DNA from: Acidimicrobiaceae bacterium
Lineage (GTDB): Bacteria; Actinomycetota; Acidimicrobiia; Acidimicrobiales; Palsa-688
Assembly (NCBI GenBank): GCA_030838045.1
Contig: JAUTXN010000137.1
Span: 1 to 52,356 of the forward strand
Direction: 5' to 3'
Length of the DNA: 52,356 bases
The notes beneath the pieces were generated by a model. It was not told the DNA's origin, did not search any database, and saw nothing but the letters and a program-made list of their open reading frames with translations. Below, piece by piece: positions 18,249 through 43,884 of this stretch (position 1 is its first letter; each line of letters starts with the position of its first letter). The translations under genes and the position numbers were made by a program.

Positions 18249-18357
18249 CCGATCCCGGCTGACTCGTCGGGTTTGGCCGTCACCCTGGCGGGTTATCTCC
18301 TTACCGGACGGCTACTTGATGGTTCCCCGAGACGGTGGCCTCCAGGGGGAGGACCCC

Positions 18358-19068
18358 ATGAGCAGCGTTCCGCCGTATCAGCGGCCCGAGCAAACCTATG
18401 GCGCGGCGCCTCCGGACGCCGGGTACCGCGATCCCGCCGCCCCGCCCGGTTGGCGAGGCGACCCCGGTCCCGCCGGGCCGGCACCGGCCACCCCGCCCCC
18501 GCCGGGCGCCTGGGCCCAGCCGCCCTCGGGCTACGCCGACCCCAACTACCCCGATCCCGCCTACCAGCCCCAGGCCGGGTACGGCCCGGGCTACCGCCAG
18601 CCCCGGGTGCGCCGGACCGGCCCCGGCCTGGCGACAGTCGCCCCGGCTCTGTTTGCCTCACTGATCATCAGCATCGGCGTGGTCGTGCTGTTTATCGGCA
18701 ACCTCTTCGTCGCCCTCGGAGCGCCCCACGGGACCGCGGGCCGGGACCGGTTCCTGCAGTTCCTGGCGCCCGCCGACGTGGCCGTTGCCGCGGCCATGGT
18801 CCTGGCGGTGGCGTTGGTCGTGCTCCAGCGCCAGATGCCCGCCGACGCCCCGGTGGTCGGGGCCCGCGGTGGTCGGGTCCGCTCGATCGCCCTCGTAGCG
18901 GGGGGTGTCGCGGCCTTCGTGGCCTTGGCCGCAGTGGTTCGAGGCTTTATGATCCTGACCGTCCCGCATCAGCCGGGAGCGGTCAAGTTCGGCGAACTTG
19001 TGGCGGCACTCGCGGTGGCCGCGATCGCCGCCTCGGCCGCCTGGTGGGCGCTGCGCCACCGCTGGTAA
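18358..19068 (+). CDS. membrane protein with Pro/Tyr-rich cytoplasmic N-terminus (hypothetical)
   Basis: ATG 18358 follows ggggagg. The N-terminal part (about 85 aa) is PPYQRPEQTYGAAPPDAGYRDPAAPPGW...YQPQAGYGPGYRQP, followed by about four hydrophobic helices. Confidence 0.65.
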   Translation: MSSVPPYQRPEQTYGAAPPDAGYRDPAAPPGWRGDPGPAGPAPATPPPPGAWAQPPSGYADPNYPDPAYQPQAGYGPGYRQPRVRRTGPGLATVAPALFASLIISIGVVVLFIGNLFVALGAPHGTAGRDRFLQFLAPADVAVAAAMVLAVALVVLQRQMPADAPVVGARGGRVRSIALVAGGVAAFVALAAVVRGFMILTVPHQPGAVKFGELVAALAVAAIAASAAWWALRHRW

Positions 19069-19073
19069 CGCAG

Positions 19074-21275
19074 CTACTCGCACCGGGCCAGTCGCACGGC
19101 GCACTGCTTGTAGTTGGGCTCACGTGAGATCGGGTCGAACTCGTCGACCGTGAGGAGATTCACGCAGCGCTCGTCGTAATGGAACGGGACGAACACCTCG
19201 CCCTGGCGCACCGTGGCGGTGACCCGCACCGCCAGGTCGTCCACCGCGCCCCGGGCGGAGCTGATGCGCACCCGGTCGCCCGTCGCCAATCGCAGGCGGC
19301 GGGCGTCGGGCGGGCTGACCTCCACCCACGCCGCGGGCGCCATCTCCTCGAGAATCCCCACCCGGCCGGTCTTGGTCCGGGTGTGCCAGTGCTCGACCGT
19401 CCGCCCGGTATTCAAGAGGAGGGGAAAATCCTCGCTGGGTGGCTCCGACAGGGGCTGGGGGGACACGCAGCGGAGTTGGGCTCGCCCCGAGGGGGTACCG
19501 AATCGACCGTCGCCATACAGTCGAGCCGTACCGCCCTCGGGCTGCTCGGCACCCGCCGGACACGGCCATTGCACCCCTCCCGCCTCGTCGATTCGTTGAT
19601 AGGTGATGCCGCTGTAGTCGCACAGCCGTCCGGCCGACACCCGGGCCCACTCGGCAAAGGCGTCCTCCGGTCCGTGCCAACCAGGGAACAACTCATCGCG
19701 CATCCCGAGCCGCTCCGCCACCGTGAGGAAGATGTCCAGGTCCGATCGGGCCTGGCCCGGAGGGTTCACGGCGCGACGCACGAGCGAGACACGACGCTCG
19801 GAGTTGGTATAGGTCCCCGTTTTCTCACCCCATATCGCAGCCGGGAGGACCACATCGCCTTGCTTGGTCGTCGGGGTCTCGAAGCCGTCCTGGACGACGA
19901 GTAGGTCGAGTTGGGCGAGGGCCGCCTCGAGGCGACGGCGGTTGGGGAACGACACGGGCGGATTGGTGGCGATGATCCAGAGGCCCCGGATGGTCCCGTC
20001 GAGGATCCCGTCGATGATGTCGGGATAGGCCCGGCCCCGCTCGGTCGGGATGCGCGCCACCGGCACGCCCCAGAGGCCGGCCAGCTCGGCCCGGTCGTCG
20101 GCGCTGTCGAAGCGCCGGTAGCCGGGCAACGACGAGCTGCCGCCCGCTTCGCGTGTCCCCATGGCGTTGCACTGGCCGGTGATGGAGAATGGCGCTGCTC
20201 CCGGGCGGCCGATGTTGCCGGTGATGAGGCACAGGTCGTTGAGCAGCGTGACGGTGGCGGTGCCCTGCACGGAATGATTGACGCCCATGGTCCACGCCAC
20301 GAAGCCCCGCTCGGCCCGGCCGAACGCTAGGGCGGCCCGGTGGAGCAGCTCCGGAGCGATGCCGCACTCGGCCGCCGCCGCCGCCACGTCGACCGTCGCC
20401 AGGTGCGCCACCAGCTCGGGGTACCCCTCGGTGTGGGCGGACACATAGTCGGTGTCCACCAGGCCCTCGTCGACGATGACCTTCATCAAGGCATTGATGA
20501 GCACCACGTCGGTGCGGGGGCGGATCGCCAGGTGCACGTCGGCGATCATCGCCGTCTTGGTCACGCGGGGGTCGACCACGATCACCGTCGCCGCCTGGTT
20601 GGCCAACACCCGGGGGGCCAGCAGGGGGTGGTTGTCGGCGATGTTGGCGCCGACCAGCAGGATGCAGTCCGCCTGTTCGAGGTCGGCATAGGCGCCCGGC
20701 GGGCCGTCGCTGCCGAAGCTGGACTTGTAGCCCGCCACGGCGGACGACATGCACAACGTGGTATTGCCGTCGTAGTGGCGGATTCCCAGTCCCAGGCGGG
20801 CCAGTTTCCCCAGGGCGTAGAACTCCTCGGTCACCAGTTGGCCGGTGCTCAAGATGGCCACCGCGTCGGGACCGTGCTCGGCCATGAGGGCGCGGAACCC
20901 GCCAGCCACCCGATCCAAGGCGCGGTCCCACGTCGTCGGGGTCAGCGGCTGGGTGCGCTCGGTGCGCATGAGCGGCTGGTGCAACCGGCCTGGCGCCGCG
21001 ATGGTCTGGTGCTCCGAGAGGCCCTTGGGGCAGAGGCGTCCGCAGTTGACCGGGTGGTCGGGATCGCCTCGTACCGCGACCGCGGCGCCGCCTCGCACGC
21101 CGATGAGCATGCCGCAGCCGACCGAGCAGTACCCGCAGGTGGTCTTGACCCAGCGCTCGGGCAACCGCGACTCGGCCACCACCCCGAAGCGCTCGTCGGT
21201 GCCGTAGCGGTACTCGTCGGCATGGGTGCCGAGCCCCAACCAGGAAGCGGGGCTGACCCCGCTGCGCCGGCTCAA
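19074..21275 (-). CDS. molybdopterin (bis-MGD) oxidoreductase, NasA/NarB-type assimilatory nitrate reductase catalytic subunit
   Basis: The N-terminal [4Fe-4S] motif is TTCGYCSVGCG...NCGRLCPKG. It has a long Mo-bisPGD body and a C-terminal tail HWHTRTKTGRV...VFVPFHYDE...NLLT...DPISREPNYKQCAVRL. The first 330 aa of the 1061-aa track ORF are an off-frame read of the upstream gene. The start is tentative: TTG 21275 overlaps the upstream stop, and TTG 21239 or GTG 21182 are alternatives. Confidence 0.85.
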   Translation of the reverse strand: MSRRSGVSPASWLGLGTHADEYRYGTDERFGVVAESRLPERWVKTTCGYCSVGCGMLIGVRGGAAVAVRGDPDHPVNCGRLCPKGLSEHQTIAAPGRLHQPLMRTERTQPLTPTTWDRALDRVAGGFRALMAEHGPDAVAILSTGQLVTEEFYALGKLARLGLGIRHYDGNTTLCMSSAVAGYKSSFGSDGPPGAYADLEQADCILLVGANIADNHPLLAPRVLANQAATVIVVDPRVTKTAMIADVHLAIRPRTDVVLINALMKVIVDEGLVDTDYVSAHTEGYPELVAHLATVDVAAAAAECGIAPELLHRAALAFGRAERGFVAWTMGVNHSVQGTATVTLLNDLCLITGNIGRPGAAPFSITGQCNAMGTREAGGSSSLPGYRRFDSADDRAELAGLWGVPVARIPTERGRAYPDIIDGILDGTIRGLWIIATNPPVSFPNRRRLEAALAQLDLLVVQDGFETPTTKQGDVVLPAAIWGEKTGTYTNSERRVSLVRRAVNPPGQARSDLDIFLTVAERLGMRDELFPGWHGPEDAFAEWARVSAGRLCDYSGITYQRIDEAGGVQWPCPAGAEQPEGGTARLYGDGRFGTPSGRAQLRCVSPQPLSEPPSEDFPLLLNTGRTVEHWHTRTKTGRVGILEEMAPAAWVEVSPPDARRLRLATGDRVRISSARGAVDDLAVRVTATVRQGEVFVPFHYDERCVNLLTVDEFDPISREPNYKQCAVRLARCE

Positions 21276-22867
21276 CGGGTGCCCCCGGAGAACCGCCGGG
21301 CCGCAGTCATCGGGGTGACGGTCACGAAGAACAGGTAGCGACCGATGAGCTCCCCGGCCGCCGCCAGCGCCAGGACGACGAGCGCCAGGAATCCGGCGCC
21401 CGCCCGGGCCGCCGACAGCGACGCCAGCATGCACGCCGCGGTCGTGGCCAGCGTCGCCCCGACCCTGACGACGAACAGCAGGCGGAAGCGACCGAAGAGC
21501 AGTCGGGCGGTGAGGGCGAACTCCCGTTCCCGCCGGGCTGCGATCGATGCCACCAAGTGCTGGATGGTGCCCAGCTGGAACAGGCTGCCGATCGTGGCCA
21601 GGCCGAAGAGGAGGCGTATCCCGGCGGTGCCGGGTCCCGCCGACGGCACTGCCACCAGGGGCCCGGTGACGAGGGCGGTGGCGAAAAAGGCCACCACCGT
21701 GCGCCCTGAGTTCCACACCGGCCGGGCGGGCACCAGGTACAGGCGTCCGCTGGCGTAGGTGCCGGCCGCACCGAGCGCGATGGCGACCAACCCCAGGCCC
21801 AGCAGCTGGCGTGGGCTCCAACCGCCGACGATCGAGGCCGCGGCGTAGGCGAAGGTGGCGAGCGAGAAGGCGCTGAAGAGTGCGACCTCGCGCGACAGCC
21901 AGGAGCGCCGGAGGTTGCGCAGCGCCTTCCACGCCACCGCGGGGCGGCCCAGATGCAGGACCGAGACGGCCAGGGCCAGCGCACCGGCCCCGGCTGCGGC
22001 CCCGGCCCCGGCCGCGCCGGGCGGGCGAGCGGCGAGGGCATGGAGGGCCACCGTGGCCACCAGCGTGCCGAGCGACAGCTGGGTCAGGAGGGTCACGGCG
22101 ATGAGCGGCCAGTGGGGATCGGCGGGCTCGAGGCGCTCGTCGACCACCGAGCGGGTGCTGGCCGGCATCGACTCGGGGACGATGATCCGGGTGGTCGACA
22201 AGGTGATGTCCGACGGCGGCAGGCCCGGCGCGTCGGCTTGGCGGTGGTCGGCGCGCCACTGGGCGATGTTGACCTTTTCCACTGTGATGGCGTGGGTCGG
22301 GCAGGCGTCGACACAGGCCGGCTTGTCACCCGTCGCCAGCCGGGGTTGGCACAGGTCGCACTTGGTGACCACCCGGCGCTGCGGGTTGAAGGCCGGGACC
22401 TCGTAGGGACAGTTCCAGATGCAGTACTGGCAGCCGATGCAATCCTCGGCGTGATGGGCCACGATCCCGTTTTCCAGCTTGACGTAGGCGTTGGTCGGGC
22501 ATCCGCTGAGGCAGGTCGGCTCGACGCAGTGGTTGCACGCCATCGACAGGTTGAACCGCTGGGCTTCGGGGAACGAGCCACCCTCAACCTCGCCCACCCG
22601 GCGCCAGTTGACCCCGACCGGGTTGGCGTTCTGCTCGGCGCAGGCCACCTCGCAGGAGTGGCAGCCGATGCACGCCCCCATCTCGAAGCTGAACCGGTAC
22701 TGCTCGCCTGCGTCGAGCGGCAGGAGCGCCGGTCCGTTGGTGCCGATCCCGGGCCGCGTGCTGGGCCCTGTGGTGGGCCCTGTGCTGGGCCCTCTGCTGG
22801 GCCGGGGGGACTCGGCGGGTGTCGACCTCGTTGGGAGGAAGCTGACCGGCTGGTCGACGACGGTCAA
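21272..22867 (-). CDS. fusion protein: four-cluster 4Fe-4S ferredoxin domain (DmsB/NrfC-like) plus DmsC/NrfD-like polytopic membrane anchor
   Basis: There are four Cys groups: CIGCHSCEVAC, CNHCVEPTCLSGCP, CIGCQYCIWNCP and CDLC..(12)..CVDACP. About 270 aa with roughly eight hydrophobic helices follow (LIAVTLLTQLSLGTLVATVAL, ALALAVSVLHLG, VALFSAFSLATFAYAAA, LGLGLVAIALGAAGTY, VVAFFATALVTGPLV, LLFGLATIGSLF, LLFVVRVGATLATTAACML, FLALVVLALAAAGELIG). The TTG start overlaps the nirD stop. Confidence 0.85.
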   Translation of the reverse strand: MTVVDQPVSFLPTRSTPAESPRPSRGPSTGPTTGPSTRPGIGTNGPALLPLDAGEQYRFSFEMGACIGCHSCEVACAEQNANPVGVNWRRVGEVEGGSFPEAQRFNLSMACNHCVEPTCLSGCPTNAYVKLENGIVAHHAEDCIGCQYCIWNCPYEVPAFNPQRRVVTKCDLCQPRLATGDKPACVDACPTHAITVEKVNIAQWRADHRQADAPGLPPSDITLSTTRIIVPESMPASTRSVVDERLEPADPHWPLIAVTLLTQLSLGTLVATVALHALAARPPGAAGAGAAAGAGALALAVSVLHLGRPAVAWKALRNLRRSWLSREVALFSAFSLATFAYAAASIVGGWSPRQLLGLGLVAIALGAAGTYASGRLYLVPARPVWNSGRTVVAFFATALVTGPLVAVPSAGPGTAGIRLLFGLATIGSLFQLGTIQHLVASIAARREREFALTARLLFGRFRLLFVVRVGATLATTAACMLASLSAARAGAGFLALVVLALAAAGELIGRYLFFVTVTPMTAARRFSGGTR

Positions 22868-23214
22868 GGGCAGGCCACCTGGACCTGACCGTCGGACACC
22901 CGGGCGGCGTAGGTGGCCACCGACACGGTGGCGTCGTCGAGGCAGGCCCCGGTATGCAGGTCGAAGCTCTGCTTGAAGATCGGCGACGCCACCTTGAGGC
23001 GATCACCCCGCGAGCCGGCGATGCCCCGCGACAGCACGAACGACTGGCTGAACGGATCGAAGTTGGACAGGGCGAACAGCTCGTCGTCGACCCGGAAGAC
23101 CGCCACCTGGCGGCCGCCGACGAGGGCACACACGCCCCGGCCAGAAATGAGCCAGTCGAAGGGGCACACGTCCACCCAGGTGGGGGCGAGGGCATGGGTT
23201 TCGGTGATGGTCAT
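22864..23214 (-). CDS. nirD: nitrite reductase [NAD(P)H] small subunit
   Basis: This is a 116-aa Rieske-fold NirD: WVDVCPFDWLISGRGVCALVGGRQVAVFRV..., SNFDPFS..., SPIFKQSFDLHTGACL. ATG 23214 overlaps the nirB TGA (ATGA), verified on the sequence. Confidence 0.9.
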   Translation of the reverse strand: MTITETHALAPTWVDVCPFDWLISGRGVCALVGGRQVAVFRVDDELFALSNFDPFSQSFVLSRGIAGSRGDRLKVASPIFKQSFDLHTGACLDDATVSVATYAARVSDGQVQVACP

Positions 23215-25874
23215 GGGGTTCCTCCGAGGGCCAGCAGTGCAGGGTCGGGTTTCTCGTGGGCGTAGGCCGGCCGGGGTTGGCCCCGCTCGGTGACGAAGAC
23301 CACGTTGTCGTCGGTCCGGTCGGAGTTGACGAAGGTCCGGAAGCGGGCCATGCGCTCCGGGTCTTCGATGGTCGCCTTCCATTCGCAGCGGTAGCCGGCC
23401 ACGTGGCGGGCCATGTCGACCTCGAACTCGGCGCACAGGCCGAGGCAGTCGTCGACGACCACCCGCCGGAGGTAGTCGAGGCCGCCATCGAGCTTGTTGA
23501 GCCAGGTGGCGGTGCGTTCCAGGCGATCGGCGGTGCGGATGTAGAACATCAAGAAGCGGTCGAGATAGCGGATCACCGTCTCGCGGTCGATGTCGCTGGC
23601 CAGGAGCACGCCATGCTGAGGCTTCAGCCCGCCGTTGCCGCACACATACAGGTTCCAGCCCTGCTCGGTGGCGATGACGCCGAAGTCCTTGCTCTGCGCC
23701 TCGGCGCATTCCCGGCTGCACCCCGACACCGCCGCCTTCACCTTGTGGGGCGATCGCAGTCCCCGGTAGCGCAGTTCCAGGTCGATGGCCAGCGCCGTCG
23801 AGTCCTGCACTCCGAAGCGGCACCAGTTCCGGCCCACGCACGACTTCACGGTGCGCAGCGCCTTGCCGTAGGCGTGGCCCGACTCCATCCCCGCGTCGAC
23901 CAGCCGCTGCCAGATGTGGGGGAGCTGGTCGACCCGGGCGCCGAAGAGGTCGATGCGCTGGCCGCCGGTGATCTTGGTGTACAGGCCGAAGTCCTTGGCG
24001 ACGTGGCCGATGGCGATGAGCTGGTCGGGGGTGATCTCGCCTCCCGGCACCCGGGGGACCACCGAGTACGTGCCGTCGCGCTGGAGGTTGGCCAGGAAAT
24101 GGTCGTTGGTGTCCTGGAGCGACGCCTGTTCCCCGTCGAGGATGTAGGCGTCCCCCAGGGTCGCGAGCATCGAGGCCACGGCCGGTTTGCAGATCTCACA
24201 GCCCCGACCCCGGCCATGGGCCGACAGCAGTTCGGAGAACGAGCCGATGCGCTGGGCCCGCACGATGTCGAACAGTTCCTGGCGGGAGAAGGCGAAGTGC
24301 TCGCACAGGTCGTTTCGGACCTCGACGCCCGCGGCCAGGAGTTCGTGACGCACCAGGCCGCTGACCAGGGGGATGCAGCCGCCGCAGCCGGTTCCCGCTC
24401 GGGTGCACGCCTTGACCCCGGCCACATCGGTGCACCCGTCGGCGACCGCAGCGCAGATCTGCTCCTTGGTCACGGTGTTGCAGGAACAGATGAGGGCGTT
24501 GCCGGCCAATGCCCCGACGCCGAGTCCGGCCCCGGCACCTTCGCCGGTGGTGCGTGCGGGGAAGATGAGCAGTTCCAGGCGCTCGGGGGTCGGCATGGCC
24601 CCTCGGCTCATCTGCACCAAGGTGTCGTACATGGTGGCGTCGCCCACGAGGATCCCCCCGAGTACCGGACGAACGCTTGTGGTGCCGCTGGTCCTCCCGC
24701 TGGTCCTCCCGCTGGTTCTCCCGTCGGCGGCGGCGGGGGCGGGACCGACCACCACCCGCTTGTACACCTTGGTCACGGGGTCGTCGAAGGTGATCGCCTC
24801 GGCACCTGGCGTGGTCCCGAAGGCGTCGCCGAAGCTGGCCACGTCCACGCCCATCAGCTTCAACTTGGTCGAGAGGTCGCTGCCCGTGAAGCTGCGGTCG
24901 CCGCCGAGGATCCGGTCCGCCACGACCGCGGCCATCTGGTAGCCCGGCGCCACCAGGCCCCACAGCCGTCCGACCGCCAGGGCGCACTCGCCGATGGCGT
25001 ACACGGCCGGGTCCGAGGTGCGGCACGCCTCGTCGACGACGACCCCGCCCCGTTCACCCATTGCGAGCCCTGCCGAGCGCGCCAGGTCGTCTCTCGGCCG
25101 GATGCCTGCGGAGAACACGACCAGGTCGACACTCAGGTCCTCGGGTGCGGCGCCCTGCGGGCTGGCGGCAGTGAAGCGCATTCCCTTCACCCGGCCGTCG
25201 GAGCCGCGCACGATCTCACTGGTGGCCGTTCCCGTGTGGACCACCACGCCGAGCTCCTCGACCCGCGAGCGCAGGGCGGCCGAGCCTCGGTCGTCGATCT
25301 GGGCCGGCATCAGGCGGGGCGCGAACTCCACCACGTGGGTTTCCAACCCGAGACTCTTCAGGGCATTGGCCGCCTCCAGGCCGAGCAGCCCCCCGCCGAC
25401 CACCGCCCCGACCCGGCAGCCTGTGGCAGTCGCAAAGTCTCGGATCGCCTCGAGGTCGTCGACCGTGCGGTACACGAAGCATCCTCGGGCGTCGCGCCCG
25501 GGTACCGGCGGTACGAACGGCACCGACCCGGTCGCCAGGACCACCGCGTCGTAGTCGACCCGGACACCACGCTGGGAGACCACGCAGCCGCGTTCCCGGT
25601 CGAGGGTGGTGACGGCGTCGCCCACATGCACGCTGAGCCCGACCTGTTCGAAGAAGCCCGGACGCACCAGCTCCAGATCCTCGGGCGATGCGCCCGCGAA
25701 CAGCGAGCTGAGCGCCACCCGGTCGTAGGCGACGCGGGGCTCTTCGCAGAAGGTCACGATGTCCCACTCGGCGGTGGCGCCCCGCTCGACCAGGGTTTCG
25801 AGCAGGCGGTGGCCCACCATGCCGTTGCCGGCCACGACGAGGGTCCGGCGCCGGCCGGACATCTCGAACTCCAT
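23211..25874 (-). CDS. nirB: nitrite reductase [NAD(P)H] large subunit
   Basis: The FAD/NAD Rossmann motifs are RTLVVAGNGMVGHRLLE and VGAVVGGGLLGLEAANAL. A BFD-like [2Fe-2S] segment reads ICSCNTVTKEQICAAV...CTRAGTGCGGC. The sirohaem/4Fe-4S region reads TGGQRIDLFG...SCVG..WCRFG...AVSGCSRECAEAQSKDFG. ATG 25874 verified. The 1282-aa track ORF is nirB plus an off-frame read through narK. Confidence 0.92.
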   Translation of the reverse strand: MEFEMSGRRRTLVVAGNGMVGHRLLETLVERGATAEWDIVTFCEEPRVAYDRVALSSLFAGASPEDLELVRPGFFEQVGLSVHVGDAVTTLDRERGCVVSQRGVRVDYDAVVLATGSVPFVPPVPGRDARGCFVYRTVDDLEAIRDFATATGCRVGAVVGGGLLGLEAANALKSLGLETHVVEFAPRLMPAQIDDRGSAALRSRVEELGVVVHTGTATSEIVRGSDGRVKGMRFTAASPQGAAPEDLSVDLVVFSAGIRPRDDLARSAGLAMGERGGVVVDEACRTSDPAVYAIGECALAVGRLWGLVAPGYQMAAVVADRILGGDRSFTGSDLSTKLKLMGVDVASFGDAFGTTPGAEAITFDDPVTKVYKRVVVGPAPAAADGRTSGRTSGRTSGTTSVRPVLGGILVGDATMYDTLVQMSRGAMPTPERLELLIFPARTTGEGAGAGLGVGALAGNALICSCNTVTKEQICAAVADGCTDVAGVKACTRAGTGCGGCIPLVSGLVRHELLAAGVEVRNDLCEHFAFSRQELFDIVRAQRIGSFSELLSAHGRGRGCEICKPAVASMLATLGDAYILDGEQASLQDTNDHFLANLQRDGTYSVVPRVPGGEITPDQLIAIGHVAKDFGLYTKITGGQRIDLFGARVDQLPHIWQRLVDAGMESGHAYGKALRTVKSCVGRNWCRFGVQDSTALAIDLELRYRGLRSPHKVKAAVSGCSRECAEAQSKDFGVIATEQGWNLYVCGNGGLKPQHGVLLASDIDRETVIRYLDRFLMFYIRTADRLERTATWLNKLDGGLDYLRRVVVDDCLGLCAEFEVDMARHVAGYRCEWKATIEDPERMARFRTFVNSDRTDDNVVFVTERGQPRPAYAHEKPDPALLALGGTP

Positions 25875-27415
25875 CAGACGACCACGTTGGCCGAGCCGGC
25901 CTTCTTGTTCAGGTACACGACCCAGGTGATGGCCGCGAAGCCCAGGTAGCAGACGAAGAACACCCAGAGGGCCGGGACCGACCAGTTGGAATGGGCCGCC
26001 GCCACCGAGACCTTGGCCGCGGGGGTCTTGGCCGCCTTCACCAGCGCCGACACGTTGAGGCTGGCTTGGCGCAGCGCCACTTGGATGAGCACCCCGCCGA
26101 AGGCCCCGATGGCGCCCGCGATGCCGATGACCGCGGCCGCCCGGCGCTTGTACTCGACCGCCGCCGCAGCCGGCTCGGCACCGGTCTCGGCCGCGTGCGT
26201 GCGACCGAGCAGGGCGAAGATCGAAGGGATCATCTTGTAGGTGGACCCGTTGCCCAGGCCGCTCAAGAAGAAGATCACCATGTAGGAGCCGAAGAACAGT
26301 GCGAAGCTGCGGTTCTCGACCCCGACGATCGCCGCTGCGGTGAACACCGCCATGCCAATGAAGACGACCAGGGTGACCCGGGCCCCGCCGACCTGGTCGG
26401 ACAGCCAGCCGCCGACCGGCCGGGACAGCGAACCGATGAGGGCGCCGACGAAGCCCAGCCCCGCCAGGTAGGTGGCGATGAAGGGGTGCCCGGCCAGGAA
26501 CTCCGGAAAGGTGTTCTTGATGACCAGCGGGAGGGCGAACGAGAAGCCGATGAACGACCCGAACGTGCCGATGTACAGCACCGACATGATCCAGGTCTGG
26601 CCATTGCGCAGTGCCATGACGTAGGACTTGGTGTCGGCCTTGGCCTGCGTGAGGCTGTCCATGAAGACCCACGCGCCGATCGATGCGATGGCGATGAGGG
26701 GCAACCACATCAGCCCGGCGTAGGCCAGGTGCACCTGGTGCTTGGGCAGCTTGACGGCCTTGGAGGCGACTCCGATGATGATCACCAAGGGCACGAACAG
26801 CTGGGCCACGGCGACGCCGAGGTTGCCCCCTGCGGCGTTCAGGCCGAGGGCGAAGCCCTTCTTCTTCTCCGGATAGAAGAACGAGATGTTCGCCATCGAC
26901 GACGAGAAGTTGCCGCCGCCGAGCCCGGCGGTGGCGGCGCAGAGGAACAGCACCCAGAACTGACCGCTGTGACTTTGGTGGGCCAGCCAGCCGCTCGGCA
27001 CGACCACCGCCAGCAGTACGGCGGGGATGAACAGCAGCGAGGCACTGATCGTGGTCCACGCCCGGCCGCCGAAGCGGGGCACGGCGAAGGTGTAGGGGAT
27101 CCGCAGGATCGACCCGATGAGGTTGGGCACCAGCGTGAGCATGAACTGCTCTGACAGCGACATCGTGATGCCAATGTTGGCCAGGTTGATGACGATGATC
27201 GTCCAGATGACCCAGACGCTGAATCCGATGTGCTCGGCGAAGATGGAGAGCGCCAGGTTTCGCTTGGCGATCTTCTGTCCTGTCTCACCCCAGAACTGTT
27301 CGTCGTCGGGCTCCCAGCGGTCGATCCAATGACCACGGCGAGGGGGATCGACCGTGGCGATGGTCGGGGAGTCCAAGGCGTCGGCTGTGGTGGGGGCATC
27401 GATGACCGTGCTCAT
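25874..27415 (-). CDS. narK: MFS nitrate/nitrite transporter
   Basis: It has twelve-TM MFS character and NarK signatures (GGGNFSSSMANISFFYPEKKKGFALGLNAGGGNLG-type box: GLGGGNFSSSMANISFFYPEKKKGFALGLNAAGGNLGVAV). ATG 27415 verified. The stop overlaps the nirB ATG by 1 nt (TGATG). Confidence 0.9.
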   Translation of the reverse strand: MSTVIDAPTTADALDSPTIATVDPPRRGHWIDRWEPDDEQFWGETGQKIAKRNLALSIFAEHIGFSVWVIWTIIVINLANIGITMSLSEQFMLTLVPNLIGSILRIPYTFAVPRFGGRAWTTISASLLFIPAVLLAVVVPSGWLAHQSHSGQFWVLFLCAATAGLGGGNFSSSMANISFFYPEKKKGFALGLNAAGGNLGVAVAQLFVPLVIIIGVASKAVKLPKHQVHLAYAGLMWLPLIAIASIGAWVFMDSLTQAKADTKSYVMALRNGQTWIMSVLYIGTFGSFIGFSFALPLVIKNTFPEFLAGHPFIATYLAGLGFVGALIGSLSRPVGGWLSDQVGGARVTLVVFIGMAVFTAAAIVGVENRSFALFFGSYMVIFFLSGLGNGSTYKMIPSIFALLGRTHAAETGAEPAAAAVEYKRRAAAVIGIAGAIGAFGGVLIQVALRQASLNVSALVKAAKTPAAKVSVAAAHSNWSVPALWVFFVCYLGFAAITWVVYLNKKAGSANVVV

Positions 27416-27687: not shown

Positions 27688-28818
27688 ATGAATTACCCAA
27701 TGTCCTTACGTCCGCTGGACGGCTTCGTTGTCGGCATCACCGCCGACCGGCGCTGGGAGGAACAAGCCGAATTGCTGTCACGCCGTGGGGCGACGATCGT
27801 CCACGGGCCGACCATCACGACCCTCTACCTGGCCTCCGACGACAACCTGCGACTGGCCACCCGGGCCCTGATCGACCAACCTCCGGACTACCTGGTGGCG
27901 ACCACGGGGATCGGTATGCGGGCCTGGCTCGACACGGCGACGACATGGGGCGTGGTCAACGAGCTCACGGCTGCGCTGGGCCGGGCCCGCATCGTCGCTC
28001 GGGGTCCGAAGGCCGCAGCGGCACTGCAGATCGGCGGGCTCGACGTCTGGCAACGGTCACCCACCGAGCAGATGCAAGCTCTGACTGACATCCTGCTCGC
28101 CGAGCCGTTGAAGGGCCGGCGCGTCGCGGTGCAGGAATACGGGATGGAGAGTCCAGAGCTGGTCGAGGTGCTGACTGGCGCGGGAGCGACCGTCGTCACC
28201 GTGCCGGTGTACCGATGGCGGGTCCCTGCCGACCTCGAACCGGCGCGCCGGCTGGTCAGGGCCGCCTGCTCGGGACAGCTCGACGCCATCACCTTCACCA
28301 GCGCGCCGGCGGTGCACAACCTGTTCGCCATGGCCGAAGCTCCCGGAGACGCCGACCTCCTCCGCCAGGCCCTGAATGGTCCGGTCACCGCGGCCTGTGT
28401 CGGACCGGTCTGCGCCGAAGGTGCCCGCCAGGAAGGCGTGGACGACCCCTTGACGCCGTCGGTGGGCCGTCTCGGGCTCCTGGTCCGGGCGCTGGGGGAT
28501 CACCTCAGCCAACGTCGACGGGTCTACCGCCTGGGGGGCCACGAGGTGGTCGTACAGGGCGGCGCCATCGAACTCGACGGTGCCGTCGACCAGCTGGCGC
28601 CCAAAGAGCGGGCGATCCTGGATCTCTTGGCCCGCAAGCCTGGGGCGGTCGTGGGCCGTGAGACCTTCCTCACCCGGGTGTGGGGATGCCCCGATACCGA
28701 TCCGCACCTGCTCGAAGTGGCCATCGGCCGCCTTCGCCGCCGGCTCGGGCCAGCCGGTGTGGCGCTCCAGGCGATCGCCGGTCGGGGCTACCGCCTCGAA
28801 CCCGACCAACCTTCGTAG
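27688..28818 (+). CDS. nnaR: NnaR-type regulator: uroporphyrinogen-III synthase (HemD)-like domain fused to an OmpR/PhoB winged-helix DNA-binding domain
   Basis: The HemD-like part is LDGFVVGITADRRWEEQAELLSRRGATIVHGPTI...VATTGIGMRAW...RVAVQEYG...AITFTSAPAV. The C-terminal wHTH is LAPKERAILDLLARKPGAVVGRETFLTRVWG...LLEVAIGRLRRRLG...IAGRGYRL. This architecture and its position next to narK/nirBD match the described Streptomyces/Mycobacterium NnaR. The start is ATG 27688 or 27700. Confidence 0.85.
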   Translation: MNYPMSLRPLDGFVVGITADRRWEEQAELLSRRGATIVHGPTITTLYLASDDNLRLATRALIDQPPDYLVATTGIGMRAWLDTATTWGVVNELTAALGRARIVARGPKAAAALQIGGLDVWQRSPTEQMQALTDILLAEPLKGRRVAVQEYGMESPELVEVLTGAGATVVTVPVYRWRVPADLEPARRLVRAACSGQLDAITFTSAPAVHNLFAMAEAPGDADLLRQALNGPVTAACVGPVCAEGARQEGVDDPLTPSVGRLGLLVRALGDHLSQRRRVYRLGGHEVVVQGGAIELDGAVDQLAPKERAILDLLARKPGAVVGRETFLTRVWGCPDTDPHLLEVAIGRLRRRLGPAGVALQAIAGRGYRLEPDQPS

Positions 28819-34445: not shown

Positions 34446-36398
34446 TCATGCGGGATGGTTGACGGGATTGCTGGTAGCAGTCGGTGCGATGTCGGCGTCG
34501 ACGATTCGGTGGGGTGCCACGACGATGAGACGGTCGTTCGGCTGCAACTCGACCGACGCGGCCTTTGCAGGGTTGAGGATGATGCCCTCGGCCCGCCCGC
34601 CGGCAGCCGCGACCGATTGATAGCCGATCGCCAGGTGGCCGCACCGCTGCGCAGCCGCCACGTAGGAGCCATAGGGCAACGCCGACGAGGCGACGGTGTA
34701 GTCGCTCACCAGCCGGGTGCCGATTTCGGATCCCTGAACGTCGAACAAGTCTTCGAAAACCTTCTCCCGCTCCGGTATCTCGGCCAGCTGGGACAGCATC
34801 AGGGCGGTGAGCCGCTCGCTGACGATCAGGTCGTGGGCCCCGGCAATCCGTGCCAGTTCGACGTTGCGGATGTCCAGCACCTCGCACACGATGCTCATGT
34901 CGGCACCGACGTCGGGGTGGTTGCGCCTGAACTTGCGGAGCTGTAGGAGGGTCATGAGGGTTCTCGCATCGGCGGACTCGGGTGTCACGTCGGTGCGGTA
35001 GCACAGCACTACGACGCGCTCGTAATGCTCGGCGGCCGCCAAGGCCCCGACCTGCATGGGGGCCGATGTTCGCGTCCGTGTGACCAGCAGCTCGAGGTTG
35101 CGCAAACCAGGAACGTCAACGGAGCCGTCCGGGATGAGTGTCTCGTCGACCAGAACCCGGAGCAGGGAACCGGGGGGTACCCAGAGGTCCAGTTCGGAGA
35201 CGATCCGTGGAGCCAGAGGGTTCCAACCGACCATCAGTATCCGTGCCGGCTGACCGATACTGGCGCTGATCGGAGGCGGCGCCACGGGTGGCGGTTCCGC
35301 CTCTCGCCGCAAGCCAAGATGGTCCGTGTCACAGGCCACCACGATGGTCGCGTCACCCGGTCCGAACACGAAGTCGTCGGAGGGATTCAGTCGCACCAGG
35401 CCGGCCGCGGTACGGACCCCGATGGCAGACGCGGTCTCATAGCTGAGCACCAGGTCGCCAAACCGGCGTCCCTCCAGCGCCCGGCTCTCGTCGAACTGAA
35501 TTTCGACGTCTTCGAAGTCGAGCAGCTCCTGAAACACCGCACCAAGGCCGCTGTGCCGACACGCCTGGGCCGTGACTCGGGCGATGACGTCCGACGATGC
35601 GATGGTGATCGCCGCCCCGTCGGTTGCTTCGCGCAGCGCCTCGGCGTTCTCCGGGTACAGGCAGTCGGCCACCACTCGAAGGTTGGCGAAGCGGTCGTCG
35701 TCCATCAGCGCCAGCACGGTGCCGATGGCTTGGGCGTCGCCGTCGTCGTAGTTGCTCGCCAGCACGATGACCGAACGGCTCTCGTAGGGGCTGGTGCGGG
35801 CCAGATCGGCGGGGCTCGAGGGATCGCCGCTGCGGCACACGATGCGCGTTCGACCAAGGTCGGGGATGCGGGCACGGATTTCGCTGTCCATCTCCACCCG
35901 GTCCCGAGGGGCCAGCACGACGATGCAACTCCTTCGCTGGCCCCGGTAGGCGACGACGAGTTCGGAGATGACCGGGAAGATCTTCTCCGACCAACCCAAG
36001 ACCAGGGTGTGGCCCTCCTCCAGCACCTGGCTGCGTCCCTTGCGAAGTTCGGTGACCCGGCGATCGATGCCCGTCGCGACCAAACCGATCAGGGAGCTGG
36101 TCACGAGGATGCCGAACAGCACGACGAAGAGCGACTGCAGACGGAGGGGCCAACCTTCGTCGCTCTGCATGGCCGACGGATCGATCGACCGCAACATGTT
36201 CTCCCAGAGGGCCTCCAGGACGCTGGTCTGCTTGTTGGGGTGCATGGTGATACCGGCCACCGACACGATGACGCCCGTCAGAAGCACCACCGCGGCGGTA
36301 ATGGCCGCCAGCCAGACGATGACTCCGACCGTGCCGGACGCAAGCGTGGTGTCAAAGCGATAGCGGGTCCGAGCCCGGAAGGAATGACGGTTGGACAT
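34446..36398 (-). CDS. CASTOR/POLLUX-related putative ion channel with tandem RCK/TrkA-N-like domains
   Basis: The N-terminal membrane part is GVIVWLAAITAAVVLLTGVIVSV...LFVVLFGILVTSSLIGLVAT. Two repeats of the HTLVLGWSEKIFPVISEL... / RILMVGWNPLAPRIVSEL... type follow. ATG 36398 verified. There is no TVGYG filter. Confidence 0.8.
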   Translation of the reverse strand: MSNRHSFRARTRYRFDTTLASGTVGVIVWLAAITAAVVLLTGVIVSVAGITMHPNKQTSVLEALWENMLRSIDPSAMQSDEGWPLRLQSLFVVLFGILVTSSLIGLVATGIDRRVTELRKGRSQVLEEGHTLVLGWSEKIFPVISELVVAYRGQRRSCIVVLAPRDRVEMDSEIRARIPDLGRTRIVCRSGDPSSPADLARTSPYESRSVIVLASNYDDGDAQAIGTVLALMDDDRFANLRVVADCLYPENAEALREATDGAAITIASSDVIARVTAQACRHSGLGAVFQELLDFEDVEIQFDESRALEGRRFGDLVLSYETASAIGVRTAAGLVRLNPSDDFVFGPGDATIVVACDTDHLGLRREAEPPPVAPPPISASIGQPARILMVGWNPLAPRIVSELDLWVPPGSLLRVLVDETLIPDGSVDVPGLRNLELLVTRTRTSAPMQVGALAAAEHYERVVVLCYRTDVTPESADARTLMTLLQLRKFRRNHPDVGADMSIVCEVLDIRNVELARIAGAHDLIVSERLTALMLSQLAEIPEREKVFEDLFDVQGSEIGTRLVSDYTVASSALPYGSYVAAAQRCGHLAIGYQSVAAAGGRAEGIILNPAKAASVELQPNDRLIVVAPHRIVDADIAPTATSNPVNHPA

Positions 36399-36493
36399 GG
36401 AGGCCCCTTCAGCAGAAGTTGATTGCCGGCGCAGCGGGCGCGCGGGCAAGCGTCGGGATGTTCGCCAGGCGCTTCATGGGGGACCACGCACCG

Positions 36494-39039: not shown

Positions 39040-39411
39040 ATGAGTTTTGCCGGCTCTGGTCGTCATAGCGGTGTGCCGCGACGACACGACGACGAGCCGC
39101 ACGCGACGCTGGCGCTGTCGCTGGTGCGCGCCGGCGTCGAGGTGGCCACCTGGCGCTTGCCGGTTGACGAGCCAATCGACCTGTCGGTCGTCGAGCGGGT
39201 GGCGCGACTCCAGTTGGCCGCCCGACGGCTCGGTTACTCGGTGCAGCTGCGCCAGCCGTCGCGGGCGCTGTGCGAGCTACTGCATCTCGTGGGCCTCGCC
39301 GACGTCGTCGGGAGTGCCGACGGGTTAGTCGTCGAGGTGGGTGGGGAGTCCGAAGGCCGGGAACAGGTTCGTGTCGAGGAAGGCGTTGAACGCGGAGATC
39401 CGGTCACCTGA
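39040..39411 (+). CDS. STAS-like small protein (hypothetical)
   Basis: IDLSVVERVARLQLAARRLGYSVQLRQPSRALCELLHLVGLADVV resembles small actinobacterial STAS-domain ORFs that I recall. GC3 is high. Its last 87 nt overlap the convergent sigma-factor gene, so the true stop and extent are uncertain. Confidence 0.4.
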   Translation: MSFAGSGRHSGVPRRHDDEPHATLALSLVRAGVEVATWRLPVDEPIDLSVVERVARLQLAARRLGYSVQLRQPSRALCELLHLVGLADVVGSADGLVVEVGGESEGREQVRVEEGVERGDPVT

Positions 39412-40335
39412 CACTTCGATGACCTGGATCGCCCACGGCGTGTGTCCGCCGTTCGGATCCACCCGGTACTGCCCGAACGCCGGGCAGCCATTCGCCTCCG
39501 TGGCGATCAGGCGAGACCCGGCGCAGCCGATACCAGCACCGAGGAACCAGCGCCCGATCTCGTCACGGCCCCGCATCCACATGGCGTAGGGCGGCATCGA
39601 CTGGACGGCGTCCTCATGCAGCAGGGCCACCAGGCGTTCGATGTCGTAGCGCTCGAAGGCGTCGACATAGCGGGCGAGGAGATCCTGTTGGTCGGCATCC
39701 ATGGATTGCCCGGTCCCGGCACTGAGATCGCGGCTGGCGAGCGTCGCCCGGGCGCGCTGGAGCGCGCTGTTGACCGAGGCGACACTCGTATCCAGCAATT
39801 CCGCCACTTCGGTCGCCTGCCACCGGAGAACCTCCCGGAGGATCAACACCGCTCGCTGACGGGCGGGGAGATGCTGGAGCGCCGTGACGAATGCCAGGCG
39901 GATGGTCTCCTTCGCCTCGGCCAGCTCGGCGGGATCGCCGGTCTCCGGCAGGACGCGCGAATCGGCAATCGGCGTCACCCACAGGTTCTCCGGGAGCAGC
40001 GGCCCCAGGTGGGTCGGATCGGCGGGCGACGAGGGCCCCATCTCCATGGGCCGGGCTCGCCGTTGGCGGCCCCGCAGCATGTCCAGGCACACATTGGTGG
40101 CGATGCGATAGACCCACGAGCGCACCGCCGAACGACCCTCGAAGCTGTCGAAGGAGCGCCAGGCCCGGACCATCGTCTCCTGGACGGCGTCCTCGGCCTC
40201 GAAGCCGGAACCCATCATCCGGTAGCAGTACCCAGTCAGTTCCCGCCGGTACTGCTCGAGATCCTCGGGTCGGAACACACCCTCGAGAGATTCAGATCGA
40301 ACCGCCACGGGGGAACACTCTACGACGGCGGTCAT
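39325..40335 (-). CDS. ECF-type sigma-70 factor with C-terminal SnoaL/NTF2-like extension (SigG/TIGR02960-like)
   Basis: Region 2 is YRRELTGYCYRMMGSGFEAEDAVQETMVRAWRSFDSFEGRSAVRSWVYRIATNVCLD. Region 4 is LPARQRAVLILREVLRWQATEVAELLDTSVASVNSALQRAR. A tail of about 130 aa follows (LLARYVDAFERYDIERLVALLHEDA...). ATG 40335 follows ggagg. Confidence 0.88.
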   Translation of the reverse strand: MTAVVECSPVAVRSESLEGVFRPEDLEQYRRELTGYCYRMMGSGFEAEDAVQETMVRAWRSFDSFEGRSAVRSWVYRIATNVCLDMLRGRQRRARPMEMGPSSPADPTHLGPLLPENLWVTPIADSRVLPETGDPAELAEAKETIRLAFVTALQHLPARQRAVLILREVLRWQATEVAELLDTSVASVNSALQRARATLASRDLSAGTGQSMDADQQDLLARYVDAFERYDIERLVALLHEDAVQSMPPYAMWMRGRDEIGRWFLGAGIGCAGSRLIATEANGCPAFGQYRVDPNGGHTPWAIQVIEVSGDRISAFNAFLDTNLFPAFGLPTHLDD

Positions 40336-40431
40336 CGATATGCCTCCGACTTCAGGGTCTGGCGCGGTCCCGCGGTGGGCGCGCTCGGGGGTAGGACGAC
40401 GGATCGGCCCCGAACTCATCGCGGGTGTCGC

Positions 40432-41546: not shown

Positions 41547-41819
41547 ATGAATTACCGGTGTAGCCTCAGCGCCGAAATGACCGAGGACCCGCCCCGTCGA
41601 ACCGGAGACTTCAGCGCCGAGGAGCGCCAGCGCCTGCGCATCGTGCATCACCGCCTGCGCAACGCCTCCCAAGCGATCGAATCGCTCCTGGCGACCGAGC
41701 AGCTGCCGCGCCGGTGGGCCCCCGAACCCGCCCCGGCCGAGGCCGTCGACGGCGCCAAGCAAGAGTTGGAGCAGGCTTACCAAGCCGTCGTGGAGTGCCA
41801 CCGGGAGCTCGCCCTCTAG
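41547..41819 (+). CDS. hypothetical helical protein (start 41547 or 41577)
   Basis: It has balanced composition and high GC3: MTEDPPRRTGDFSAEERQRLRIVHHRLRNASQAIESLLATEQLP...AKQELEQAYQAVVECHRELAL. Its stop interlocks with the convergent pabBC stop. There is no family assignment. Confidence 0.5.
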   Translation: MNYRCSLSAEMTEDPPRRTGDFSAEERQRLRIVHHRLRNASQAIESLLATEQLPRRWAPEPAPAEAVDGAKQELEQAYQAVVECHRELAL

Positions 41820-43585: not shown

Positions 43586-43646
43586 GGCTCCTTCCGCCAC
43601 CCGTCGTCGGGCCTGACCAGGATAACTGTGGTGGCCCCCGAGTTCA

Positions 43647-43721
43647 TTGTGTTCAAAACGCGTAGCTATACCATCGCGTTCTGAACACAACGGTCGCTGA
43701 GCGGCCGGCCGCTGAGCGACC
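43647..43721. promoter_or_regulatory. two adjacent near-perfect palindromes in the pabBC / hemolysin-III divergent spacer
   Basis: The first has arms ttgtgttcaaaacgcg (43647-62) and cgcgttctgaacacaa (43675-90), 15/16 complementary, with a 12-nt spacer. The second is ggtcgctgagcggcc|ggccgctgagcgacc (43692-43721), 14/15 complementary. The function (operator or leader hairpin) is unknown. Confidence 0.45.
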
Positions 43722-43884
43722 TGCTTGGAGTTGGTCCGAACTCGCGGTGTACCGTTGACATCGGCACGGCCGGGAGCTCCCGGACGTGCTCGGTGGCTGT
43801 CCCGTTGGGCGGACACCGGAGCGCTACCCCAGACCCTGGTGGCGCCCCATTTCGTGGGGTCAGCCAAACCATCAGGAGTCACGA

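Follow-up and report, generated by a model that had tools for sequence, protein, structure and literature searches.

How does a nitrate reductase of the assimilatory type obtain its electrons when the gene next to it encodes a membrane-integral iron–sulfur protein? The question is raised by a 52,356-nucleotide stretch from an Acidimicrobiaceae bacterium (assembly GCA_030838045.1, contig JAUTXN010000137.1, positions 1 to 52,356), hereafter the window, meaning the whole stretch that was analysed. In this window, with a G+C content of about 68%, a narK-nirB-nirD operon continues into two further genes, one for a fusion of DmsB-like and DmsC/NrfD-like parts and one for a Nas-type enzyme with a molybdenum-bis(pyranopterin guanine dinucleotide) (Mo-bisPGD) centre. 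Prokaryotic nitrate reductases are conventionally divided into Nar, Nap and soluble Nas, the last being fed by NAD(P)H or ferredoxin. We find that the fusion and the reductase form a conserved gene pair in nitrate/nitrite gene context, with a nitrate-type active site, no export signals, an inverted charge bias and conserved quinol-site residues. We consider it probable, on sequence evidence, that the pair encodes a membrane-bound, cytoplasm-facing quinol:nitrate oxidoreductase that would supply nitrite for assimilation.

The two genes of the pair and the regions of the fusion are as follows.

21272..22867, minus strand: fusion, DmsB-like plus DmsC/NrfD-like, 531 aa (Pfam, NCBIfam, alignment, Foldseek)
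Fusion residues 1-45: variable tail
Fusion residues ~55-200: DmsB-like domain
Fusion residues ~200-250: linker
Fusion residues 253-516: eight-helix DmsC/NrfD-like domain
19074..21275, minus strand: catalytic subunit, Nas-type Mo-bisPGD nitrate reductase, 733 aa (Pfam, alignment and tree)

A four-cluster domain and a membrane anchor in one polypeptide

Pfam places Fer4_11 (residues 107-196, E 1.2e-19) and DmsC (residues 252-514, E 1.1e-16) in the same 531-aa minus-strand polypeptide, the two-part layout that an earlier reading of the window from its letters alone (the sequence-only reading) had predicted. That reading had also described four complete ferredoxin-type Cys groups and an anchor of about eight helices, and both descriptions hold. 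The 16 cysteines fall into four [4Fe-4S] groups (C66/69/72/76, C111/114/119/123, C143/146/149/153 and C170/173/185/189), and none of the 16 varies among 65 homologues. Averaged over the alignment of these homologues, hydropathy shows eight helices in the anchor, in agreement with an AlphaFold model built on the same alignment (predicted template modelling score 0.73; predicted local distance difference test >90 in the membrane part). The N-terminal domain shares 37% identity with Escherichia coli DmsB (E 6e-35), and its best NCBIfam model is DMSO_dmsB, at 155 bits below the cut-off of 214. In Foldseek comparisons the N-terminal domain resembles PsrB, ArrB and FdnH, and the C-terminal domain ActC and PsrC. 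The first ~45 residues are variable and rich in Pro, Ser and Thr, and contain neither a signal peptide nor a twin-arginine motif.

No part of the fusion is better conserved, or modelled with more confidence, than the membrane domain. Pairwise alignment with E. coli DmsC brings His65 onto His305 (LHLGRP) and Glu87 onto Glu327 (SWLSRE), two DmsC residues that mutagenesis has reportedly shown to be required for menaquinol binding and oxidation. His305 and Glu327 are invariant in the 65 homologues and in distant phyla, within the motif HLG(R/Q)P...SW(L/M)SRE, and are placed at those ends of helices 2 and 3 that face the cytoplasm, where they would form a putative quinol site. The quinol-linked function proposed by the sequence-only reading thus gains support in silico from the invariance of these His65/Glu87 equivalents. 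In a 2021 review of the NrfD family, SoeC, the one family member considered to be inverted, is given the same His65/Glu87 pair. Because only two His residues are invariant among the 65 homologues, both on one face, the anchor has no haem-ligand pairs.

The catalytic subunit belongs to the Nas lineage

Pfam finds three Mo-bisPGD domains on the 733-aa subunit, Molybdop_Fe4S4, Molybdopterin and Molydop_binding, as anticipated from the letters alone, and the NasA/NarB hallmarks noted there are present: CGYCSVGCG...CGRLCPKG, the FS0 motif, which follows the pattern C-x2-C-x3-C-x(~27)-C, and DPISREPNYKQCAVRL. Among solved structures, that of monomeric NapA from Desulfovibrio desulfuricans (2jio/2nap) scores best, at 496 bits ahead of all formate dehydrogenases. 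NapA Cys140-Met141, Met308 and Arg354 align to identical residues in the catalytic subunit. In a multiple alignment, LCM(A/S)SA, TMG(V/I)N and GT-RE are common to this family, NasA, NasC and NapA, whereas E. coli FdhF has VC(U)H and GA-CD at the same columns. The subunit is 40-44% identical to Halobaculum NasA, Ensifer NasA and Paracoccus NasC, and its closest plasmid relatives among 72,556 records, at 40-43% identity, are all annotated as nitrate reductase or NasA. The NCBIfam narG and narH models give the window proteins 32.7 and 57 bits, respectively, far under their cut-offs. The subunit carries neither the C-terminal Fer2_BFD [2Fe-2S] domain of proteobacterial NasA/NasC nor the fused NADH-reductase module of the Hymenobacter enzyme, and it has no flavin or other redox domain. 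We considered a formate dehydrogenase identity and rejected it on active-site motifs and gene context.

Neighbour-joining trees nest the catalytic subunit within the Nas radiation and leave E. coli NapA, FdhF and DmsA (the outgroup) outside it. Fusion-linked catalytic subunits form one clade (bootstrap 95) that splits into an Acidimicrobiia plus Spirochaetia branch (97) and a Planctomycetota-type branch (100), apart from stand-alone NasA, NasC, NasN-like and NADH-fused forms. The existence of a single clade implies that the pair is an old, co-inherited unit. Together, the NapA-residue alignment, the motif columns and the trees bear out the earlier assignment of the subunit as nitrate-type and not formate-type.

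The sister clade of the fusion-linked reductases consists of ‘nitrate reductases’ of 783-829 aa from Streptomyces, Curtobacterium and Deinococcus plasmids (L084:5878-8855, L085:5887-8367 and L100:5899-8774), in which Cys-Thr replaces Cys-Met; the Streptomyces copy has no FS0 cysteines. In two of these three loci the reductase gene is followed by an open reading frame (ORF) of 163-173 aa with no Pfam domain.

Charge bias and N-termini point to the cytoplasm

The catalytic subunit of the window starts MSRRSG..., which recalls a twin-arginine translocation (Tat) signal. However, across ~70 homologous N-termini the RR is not conserved and no hydrophobic stretch follows it, and some homologues begin only ~15 residues ahead of the Fe4S4 motif; E. 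coli NapA, compared alongside, shows a textbook Tat signal. A Tat signal arising from the ‘SRR’ was rejected because RR is unconserved and the hydrophobic region is missing, which upholds the earlier view that the subunit has no convincing one.

The ~45 residues ahead of the FS0 motif in the window protein belong to a conserved N-terminal extension of 25-50 residues on fusion-linked reductases (LGLG...Y.Y..D..FG....SR.PD.WV.TTCGYC), absent from stand-alone Nas enzymes. We infer that this extension probably docks onto the Fe–S domain of the fusion.

Charged residues in the anchor loops suggest the same topology. In the 65 homologues, lysine plus arginine averages 14.0 on the Fe–S side (minimum 11) versus 3.0 on the other side (maximum 5), and in six distant homologues from Spirochaetia, Planctomycetota, Fibrobacterales and unassigned metagenomes the counts are 9-17 versus 0-4. 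E. coli DmsC, whose partners are periplasmic, shows the reverse bias (2 on the Fe–S side, 5 on the other). By the positive-inside rule, the charge bias places the Fe–S domain, and hence the catalytic subunit, on the cytoplasmic side, in line with the cytoplasm-facing, signal-peptide-free Fe–S domain proposed earlier.

Operon layout in the window

The narK, nirB, nirD, fusion and molybdoenzyme genes lie head to tail on the minus strand as one operon. The fusion gene sits between nirD and the Mo-bisPGD gene, as the coordinates and overlapping junctions confirm. The remaining genes of the cluster are:

22864..23214, minus strand: nirD, small subunit of NAD(P)H nitrite reductase (Pfam Rieske_2 1.6e-37; NCBIfam NirD above cut-off)
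23211..25874, minus strand: nirB, sirohaem NAD(P)H nitrite reductase large subunit (NCBIfam nirB 1040-1141 bits, above cut-off)
25874..27415, minus strand: NarK-family nitrate/nitrite transporter of the major facilitator superfamily (MFS), first gene of the operon (TIGR00886 286 bits, NarU 303 bits, Pfam MFS_1)
27688..28818, plus strand: NnaR-type regulator with HemD-like and OmpR-type DNA-binding domains (Pfam HEM4 plus Trans_reg_C)

Successive genes overlap at all four junctions (TGATG, ATGA, TTGA and TTGA), which implies co-translation and suggests tight translational coupling of the narK-nirB-nirD-fusion-reductase operon. The ATG start of nirB overlaps the narK stop codon. The last two genes, for the fusion and the reductase, both start with TTG; that of the catalytic gene overlaps the stop of the fusion gene, and the 733 aa are counted from it. 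The NnaR-type regulator gene lies upstream of the operon, divergent from narK and separated from it by 272 bp.

At its 3' end the operon meets convergent genes, and the remainder of the window is ordinary chromosomal context. Between a solute-binding protein gene and the reductase 3' end sit two plus-strand ORFs, 18273-19127 and 18316-19068 (284 and 250 aa), that overlap each other and have no Pfam match; they may represent a real gene or an artefact of high G+C. Three further minus-strand genes of the window were annotated: a chorismate-binding plus class-IV aminotransferase fusion of PabB-PabC-like architecture (41816-43882), a Castor/Pollux-like RCK channel protein (34446-36449) and a sigma-70 factor with a C-terminal SnoaL-like domain (39325-40419).

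The gene pair is conserved across phyla

Fusion homologues number 1702 in a 90%-clustered database, and the best 120 of these share the same fused architecture. With synteny also kept in dozens of species, the arrangement is far from what chance would produce. In species-representative genomes, relatives of the fusion occur in 523 stretches; the best 80, on which the following locus counts rest, all come from Acidimicrobiia or unclassified Actinomycetota metagenome-assembled genomes (MAGs), including Ilumatobacter, Aquihabitans and Microthrixaceae. In each of the 71 Acidimicrobiia loci where the contig runs on beyond the fusion gene, the next gene is that of the catalytic subunit (71 of 71). 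Upstream of the fusion gene we find nirD in 72 of 80 loci and nirB in about 62, with narK nearby in about 35 and an NnaR homologue linked to the cluster in 53. Adjacency of nirBD to the pair is frequent, not universal.

An exhaustive search of 1.84 billion 50%-identity representatives returned 741 clusters at E <= 1e-30, the best 150 of which are mostly full-length fusions at 33-50% identity. Gene context was looked up for seven distant representatives (eight loci, L090-L098), and in all eight loci the catalytic gene follows the fusion gene. The catalytic subunits in all distant loci examined carry nitrate-type motifs and no Tat signal. In a Spirochaetia MAG (40% G+C), MFS-nirD-nirB genes are divergent from the fusion-reductase pair. 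In the complete genome of Bremerella volcania (Planctomycetota), nrtABCD-like genes and one for a GAF protein come before the pair, and genes for a NasB-like flavoprotein and a multihaem cytochrome come after it. A Fibrobacterales MAG has a full molybdenum cofactor (MoCo) synthesis operon, nirD, the pair and then nirB. In two metagenomic contigs, nrtABCD-like or nirB-nirD-MFS genes precede the pair, and one representative from an NCBI assembly (contigs L093 and L094) has the pair alone. The pair is thus found in an assimilatory context of NnaR, narK or nrtABCD-like genes, nirBD and MoCo-synthesis genes, and gltB is also among its neighbours in the distant loci.

Among the matches listed from a Bremerella-seeded search are Blastopirellula marina, Bythopirellula, Singulisphaera acidiphila, Symmachiella, Pirellulimonas, Isosphaeraceae, a Verrucomicrobiales MAG and Sorangium cellulosum; the Blastopirellula, Singulisphaera, Verrucomicrobiales and Sorangium cases are known from fusion homologues alone and not from gene context. 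The plasmid collection contains no full-length fusion, with only DmsB-like parts matching. The sequence-only reading had suggested looking across Actinobacteria for the fusion beside nirBD and narK. Synteny with nitrate/nitrite genes is indeed kept, in Acidimicrobiia and in distant loci, but the family is not limited to Actinobacteria and spans several phyla; a curiosity confined to Acidimicrobiia is ruled out by the representative search and the context look-ups.

Two of these loci hold further genes of note. Directly after the pair in Bremerella volcania (CP036289.1; L098:12080-16118) are three genes: that for a 666-aa flavoprotein resembling the NirB N-terminus (Pyr_redox_2, Rubredoxin_C, Fer2_BFD) with no sirohaem domain, then those for a 451-aa multihaem cytochrome and a Tll0287-like protein. 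They may constitute an unusual nitrite-reducing module. On one metagenomic contig, a 469-aa gene with no Pfam match (L092:4495-5904) lies between the nrtABCD-like genes and the fusion gene.

NirD in the window lacks the Rieske ligands

Known Nas enzymes are supplied by ferredoxin or flavodoxin, by a BFD-type [2Fe-2S] domain fed by NasB/NirB, or by a fused flavin reductase (NasN; Hymenobacter). In Paracoccus, NasB and the Rieske protein NasG pass electrons from NADH on to NasC, and Mycobacterium tuberculosis assimilates nitrate with quinol-dependent NarGHI and NirBD. The account of donors in the sequence-only reading, which named ferredoxin/flavodoxin or an NAD(P)H diaphorase subunit for assimilatory enzymes and tied DmsBC-type modules to Tat-exported ones, was incomplete in leaving out Paracoccus NasB-NasG-NasC, M. 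tuberculosis NarGHI and SoeABC, a proposed cytoplasm-facing enzyme with a DmsBC-type module.

Alignment reveals that the NirD of the window lacks the Rieske Cys/His ligands, with NFDPFS and ASPIFK in place of the CPH and CPLH of its relatives; Paracoccus NasG-like and Ensifer proteins retain them. Consequently, a relay in the style of NasB-NasG-NasC has no obvious carrier here, and a NasG-type relay via NirD is ruled out for this genome only. Two findings argue for the fusion as the dedicated electron donor: the missing ligands, and the loci in which the pair has no adjoining NirB-like gene (L092, L093 and several in Acidimicrobiia).

Yet another donor solution is seen on a Hymenobacter volaticus plasmid (L099:6995-12041), where NasA is fused to an NADH-reductase module (1171 aa) and followed by a 496-aa protein with an NIR_SIR ferredoxin-like half-domain and a C-terminal rubredoxin. 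A DUF4202 gene adjoins the clusters of both L099 and L096.

Proposed electron path and competing explanations

In the quinol:nitrate oxidoreductase that we favour, menaquinol would be oxidised at the His305/Glu327 site of the anchor, and its two electrons would pass through the four [4Fe-4S] clusters of the DmsB-like domain to FS0 of the Nas-type subunit. From FS0 they would reach the Mo-bisPGD centre with its Cys ligand and there reduce nitrate brought in by NarK, and NirBD, using NAD(P)H, would convert the resulting nitrite to ammonium. The menaquinone couple lies at ~-74 mV and the nitrate/nitrite couple at ~+420 mV, so that the reaction between menaquinol and nitrate is strongly exergonic. 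It is an inference that the two proteins form a complex, that quinol donates the electrons, that these flow towards nitrate and that the enzyme serves assimilation, and the same applies to any conservation of energy. A bolder version, by analogy with proposals for other NrfD-family subunits, is that the NrfD-like domain would move protons with the ~0.5 V drop from menaquinol to nitrate, making the enzyme a respiratory coupling site and a widespread, unrecognised fourth class beside Nar, Nap and soluble Nas; we regard this as rather unlikely.

Alternatively, NAD(P)H might be the electron source: NirB, by its flavin/[2Fe-2S] module, or a NasB-like protein would pass electrons to the four-cluster domain, from which the catalytic subunit would receive them, and the DmsC-like domain would serve only to tether the assembly near NarK, much as NasB-NasG-NasC works in Paracoccus as far as the relay is concerned. 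The frequency of nirD (72/80) and nirB (~62/80) upstream of the fusion in Acidimicrobiia, the Pyr_redox_2 plus Fer2_BFD flavoprotein directly after the Bremerella pair and the Rieske ligands retained by NirD homologues in non-actinobacterial loci all speak for such a route. It nevertheless has, in our estimate, a small chance of being correct, given that the His65/Glu87 quinol-site residues are kept across phyla in the best-conserved domain, that the pair occurs without an adjoining NirB-like gene (L092, L093 and several Acidimicrobiia loci) and that the NirD of the window has no cluster. A similarly small chance goes to the same enzyme acting mainly in dissimilation or redox balancing under oxygen limitation, as an analogue of NarGHI with NirBD detoxifying nitrite. 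Here the architecture is that of respiratory complex iron–sulfur molybdoenzymes (CISM), and NarK, cytoplasmic nitrate reduction and NirBD make up the respiratory and detoxification layout of E. coli and M. tuberculosis; set against this are the NnaR-type assimilation regulator linked in 53 of 80 loci, the NrtABCD-like high-affinity uptake genes, gltB and MoCo genes beside the pair elsewhere, a cytoplasmic-side quinol site without haems, which provides no redox loop, and the position of the catalytic subunit within the Nas radiation.

That the substrate is formate, chlorate or selenate, and the linkage to nitrate genes incidental, seems very improbable: the NCBIfam Fdh-alpha model does reach 537 bits, close to the NasA model, with no equivalog cut-off attained, but the formate dehydrogenase signature (Sec/Cys-His and its Arg) is absent, all the Nap/Nas residues are there, and linkage to nitrate-transporter and nitrite-reductase genes is kept across at least four phyla. 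Least credible of all is a complex facing the periplasm, whose Fe–S domain and catalytic subunit would, in the manner of canonical DmsABC, leave the cytoplasm by some route not yet recognised. The MSRRSG... start is loosely twin-arginine-like, but the unconserved RR, the lack of a hydrophobic region and the near absence of an N-terminal extension in several homologues argue otherwise, as do the charge bias, inverted relative to DmsC, and the need of NirBD for nitrite in the cytoplasm, to which NarK imports nitrate.

Several observations weigh against the quinol:nitrate oxidoreductase that we prefer. The NCBIfam nitrate-reductase equivalogs score below cut-off (NasA_Halo 574 vs 1000; NasC 535 vs 1100), which places the catalytic subunit in the Nas lineage but in no curated subfamily, and the deep nodes of the neighbour-joining trees are weak (support 29-58). 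Orientation and quinol site draw on the positive-inside rule and on motif conservation, which are indirect support. NirD homologues at non-Acidimicrobiia pairs in Spirochaetia, Fibrobacterales and a metagenomic contig keep the Rieske ligands CPH...CP(L)H, as does the Paracoccus NasG-like protein (sequences compared at L088:5640-5975, L090:2414-2770, L096:6406-6738 and L097:7335-7661), and the Bremerella locus encodes a NasB-like flavoprotein adjoining the pair. An NAD(P)H route to the fusion-linked reductase is plausible in non-Acidimicrobiia lineages, and electron routing may differ between lineages.

Comparison with known systems

The catalytic subunit shares with NasA, NasC and NarB the three-domain architecture, the FS0 motif, the Cys-Met Mo-ligand motif and the conserved Arg and Met, as well as a cytoplasmic location and clustering with a nitrate transporter and nirBD. 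It differs in its partner, a membrane-integral fusion of four-cluster and NrfD-like parts, and in forming its own clade with an N-terminal extension. With the CISM enzymes DmsABC and PsrABC the system shares three modules: an FS0-containing Mo-bisPGD subunit, a protein with four [4Fe-4S] clusters, and an eight-helix NrfD/DmsC anchor that has no haem and keeps the DmsC His65/Glu87 pair. In contrast to these enzymes, B and C are fused, a Tat signal is lacking, the orientation is inverted by charge bias, and the catalytic subunit stems from the Nas and not the DmsA/PsrA/NarG lineage. Wells et al. (2020) described the clade of Nas, Nap, AioA and cytoplasmic formate dehydrogenases as never associated with canonical four-cluster or anchor subunits.

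SoeABC is the closest topological precedent, with no export signal, an inverted NrfD-like anchor and the His65/Glu87 site; the 2021 review of the NrfD family gives it as the sole complex on the cytoplasmic (N) side, with a DmsBC-type module. However, SoeA is a sulfite dehydrogenase that reduces quinone, whereas here a Nas-type subunit would oxidise quinol and reduce nitrate, and SoeB and SoeC are separate proteins where ours are fused. NarGHI would be a functional analogue, being quinol-oxidising and membrane-bound with a cytoplasmic active site and working with NarK and NirBD, but the Asp ligand and other lineage of NarG, the [3Fe-4S] cluster of NarH, and the di-haem cytochrome b of NarI with its redox loop have no counterpart here.

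ForCE of Bacillus subtilis offers a further parallel, as a cytoplasmic member of the FdhF/Nas super-lineage that is coupled to menaquinone by a non-canonical partner. This partner is a small DUF1641 protein, loosely membrane-bound, and electrons from formate run toward quinone (PMC8808070); ForCE thus differs in lacking a DmsBC-type fusion and in acting on formate, not nitrate. FdhF docks onto DmsB-like HycB proteins (7z0s, 7qv7), a precedent for docking within the lineage.

Implications for nitrate assimilation

In the open-access full-text literature we found no description of a fusion-linked nitrate reductase, subscription journals lying outside that scope. The 2021 review of the NrfD family counts thirteen to fourteen complexes, with no nitrate reductase and no B–C fusion among them. 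The earlier remark that no characterised example was known stands as far as a biochemical description in open-access full text is concerned, but one annotation does name a homologue as a quinol-dependent nitrate reductase: GenBank SIO24747.1 (Singulisphaera sp. GP187, a JGI submission) is called ‘nitrate reductase (quinol-dependent), transmembrane subunit’. At least one curator or annotation rule must therefore have arrived at the same functional idea before; we traced no publication behind the name. Each part of the sequence-only reading that computation could address was borne out. The system combines known modules with what would be a known reaction, in a coherent, widespread and apparently uncharacterised class.

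In sum, the pair points to a fourth architecture, in which a fused module of the DmsBC type, facing inward, connects a Nas-lineage subunit to the quinone pool. If this is true, it contradicts the published generalisation that the Nas/Nap/FdhF lineage goes without four-cluster and anchor subunits, and it would add a second inverted NrfD-family complex beside SoeABC. Pipelines name the fusion ‘DMSO reductase anchor’, ‘formate dehydrogenase iron-sulfur subunit’ or ‘anaerobic DMSO reductase chain B’. Such labels can mislead metagenomic inventories of the nitrogen and sulfur cycles, and these annotations would need correcting.

Many of the carrier groups are abundant in soils, oceans and wastewater. 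On the reading that we favour, these organisms would draw on the respiratory quinone pool, not on NADH or ferredoxin, for the electrons that reduce nitrate during growth, and the energy cost of nitrate assimilation would change because electrons from NADH could pass complex I first.

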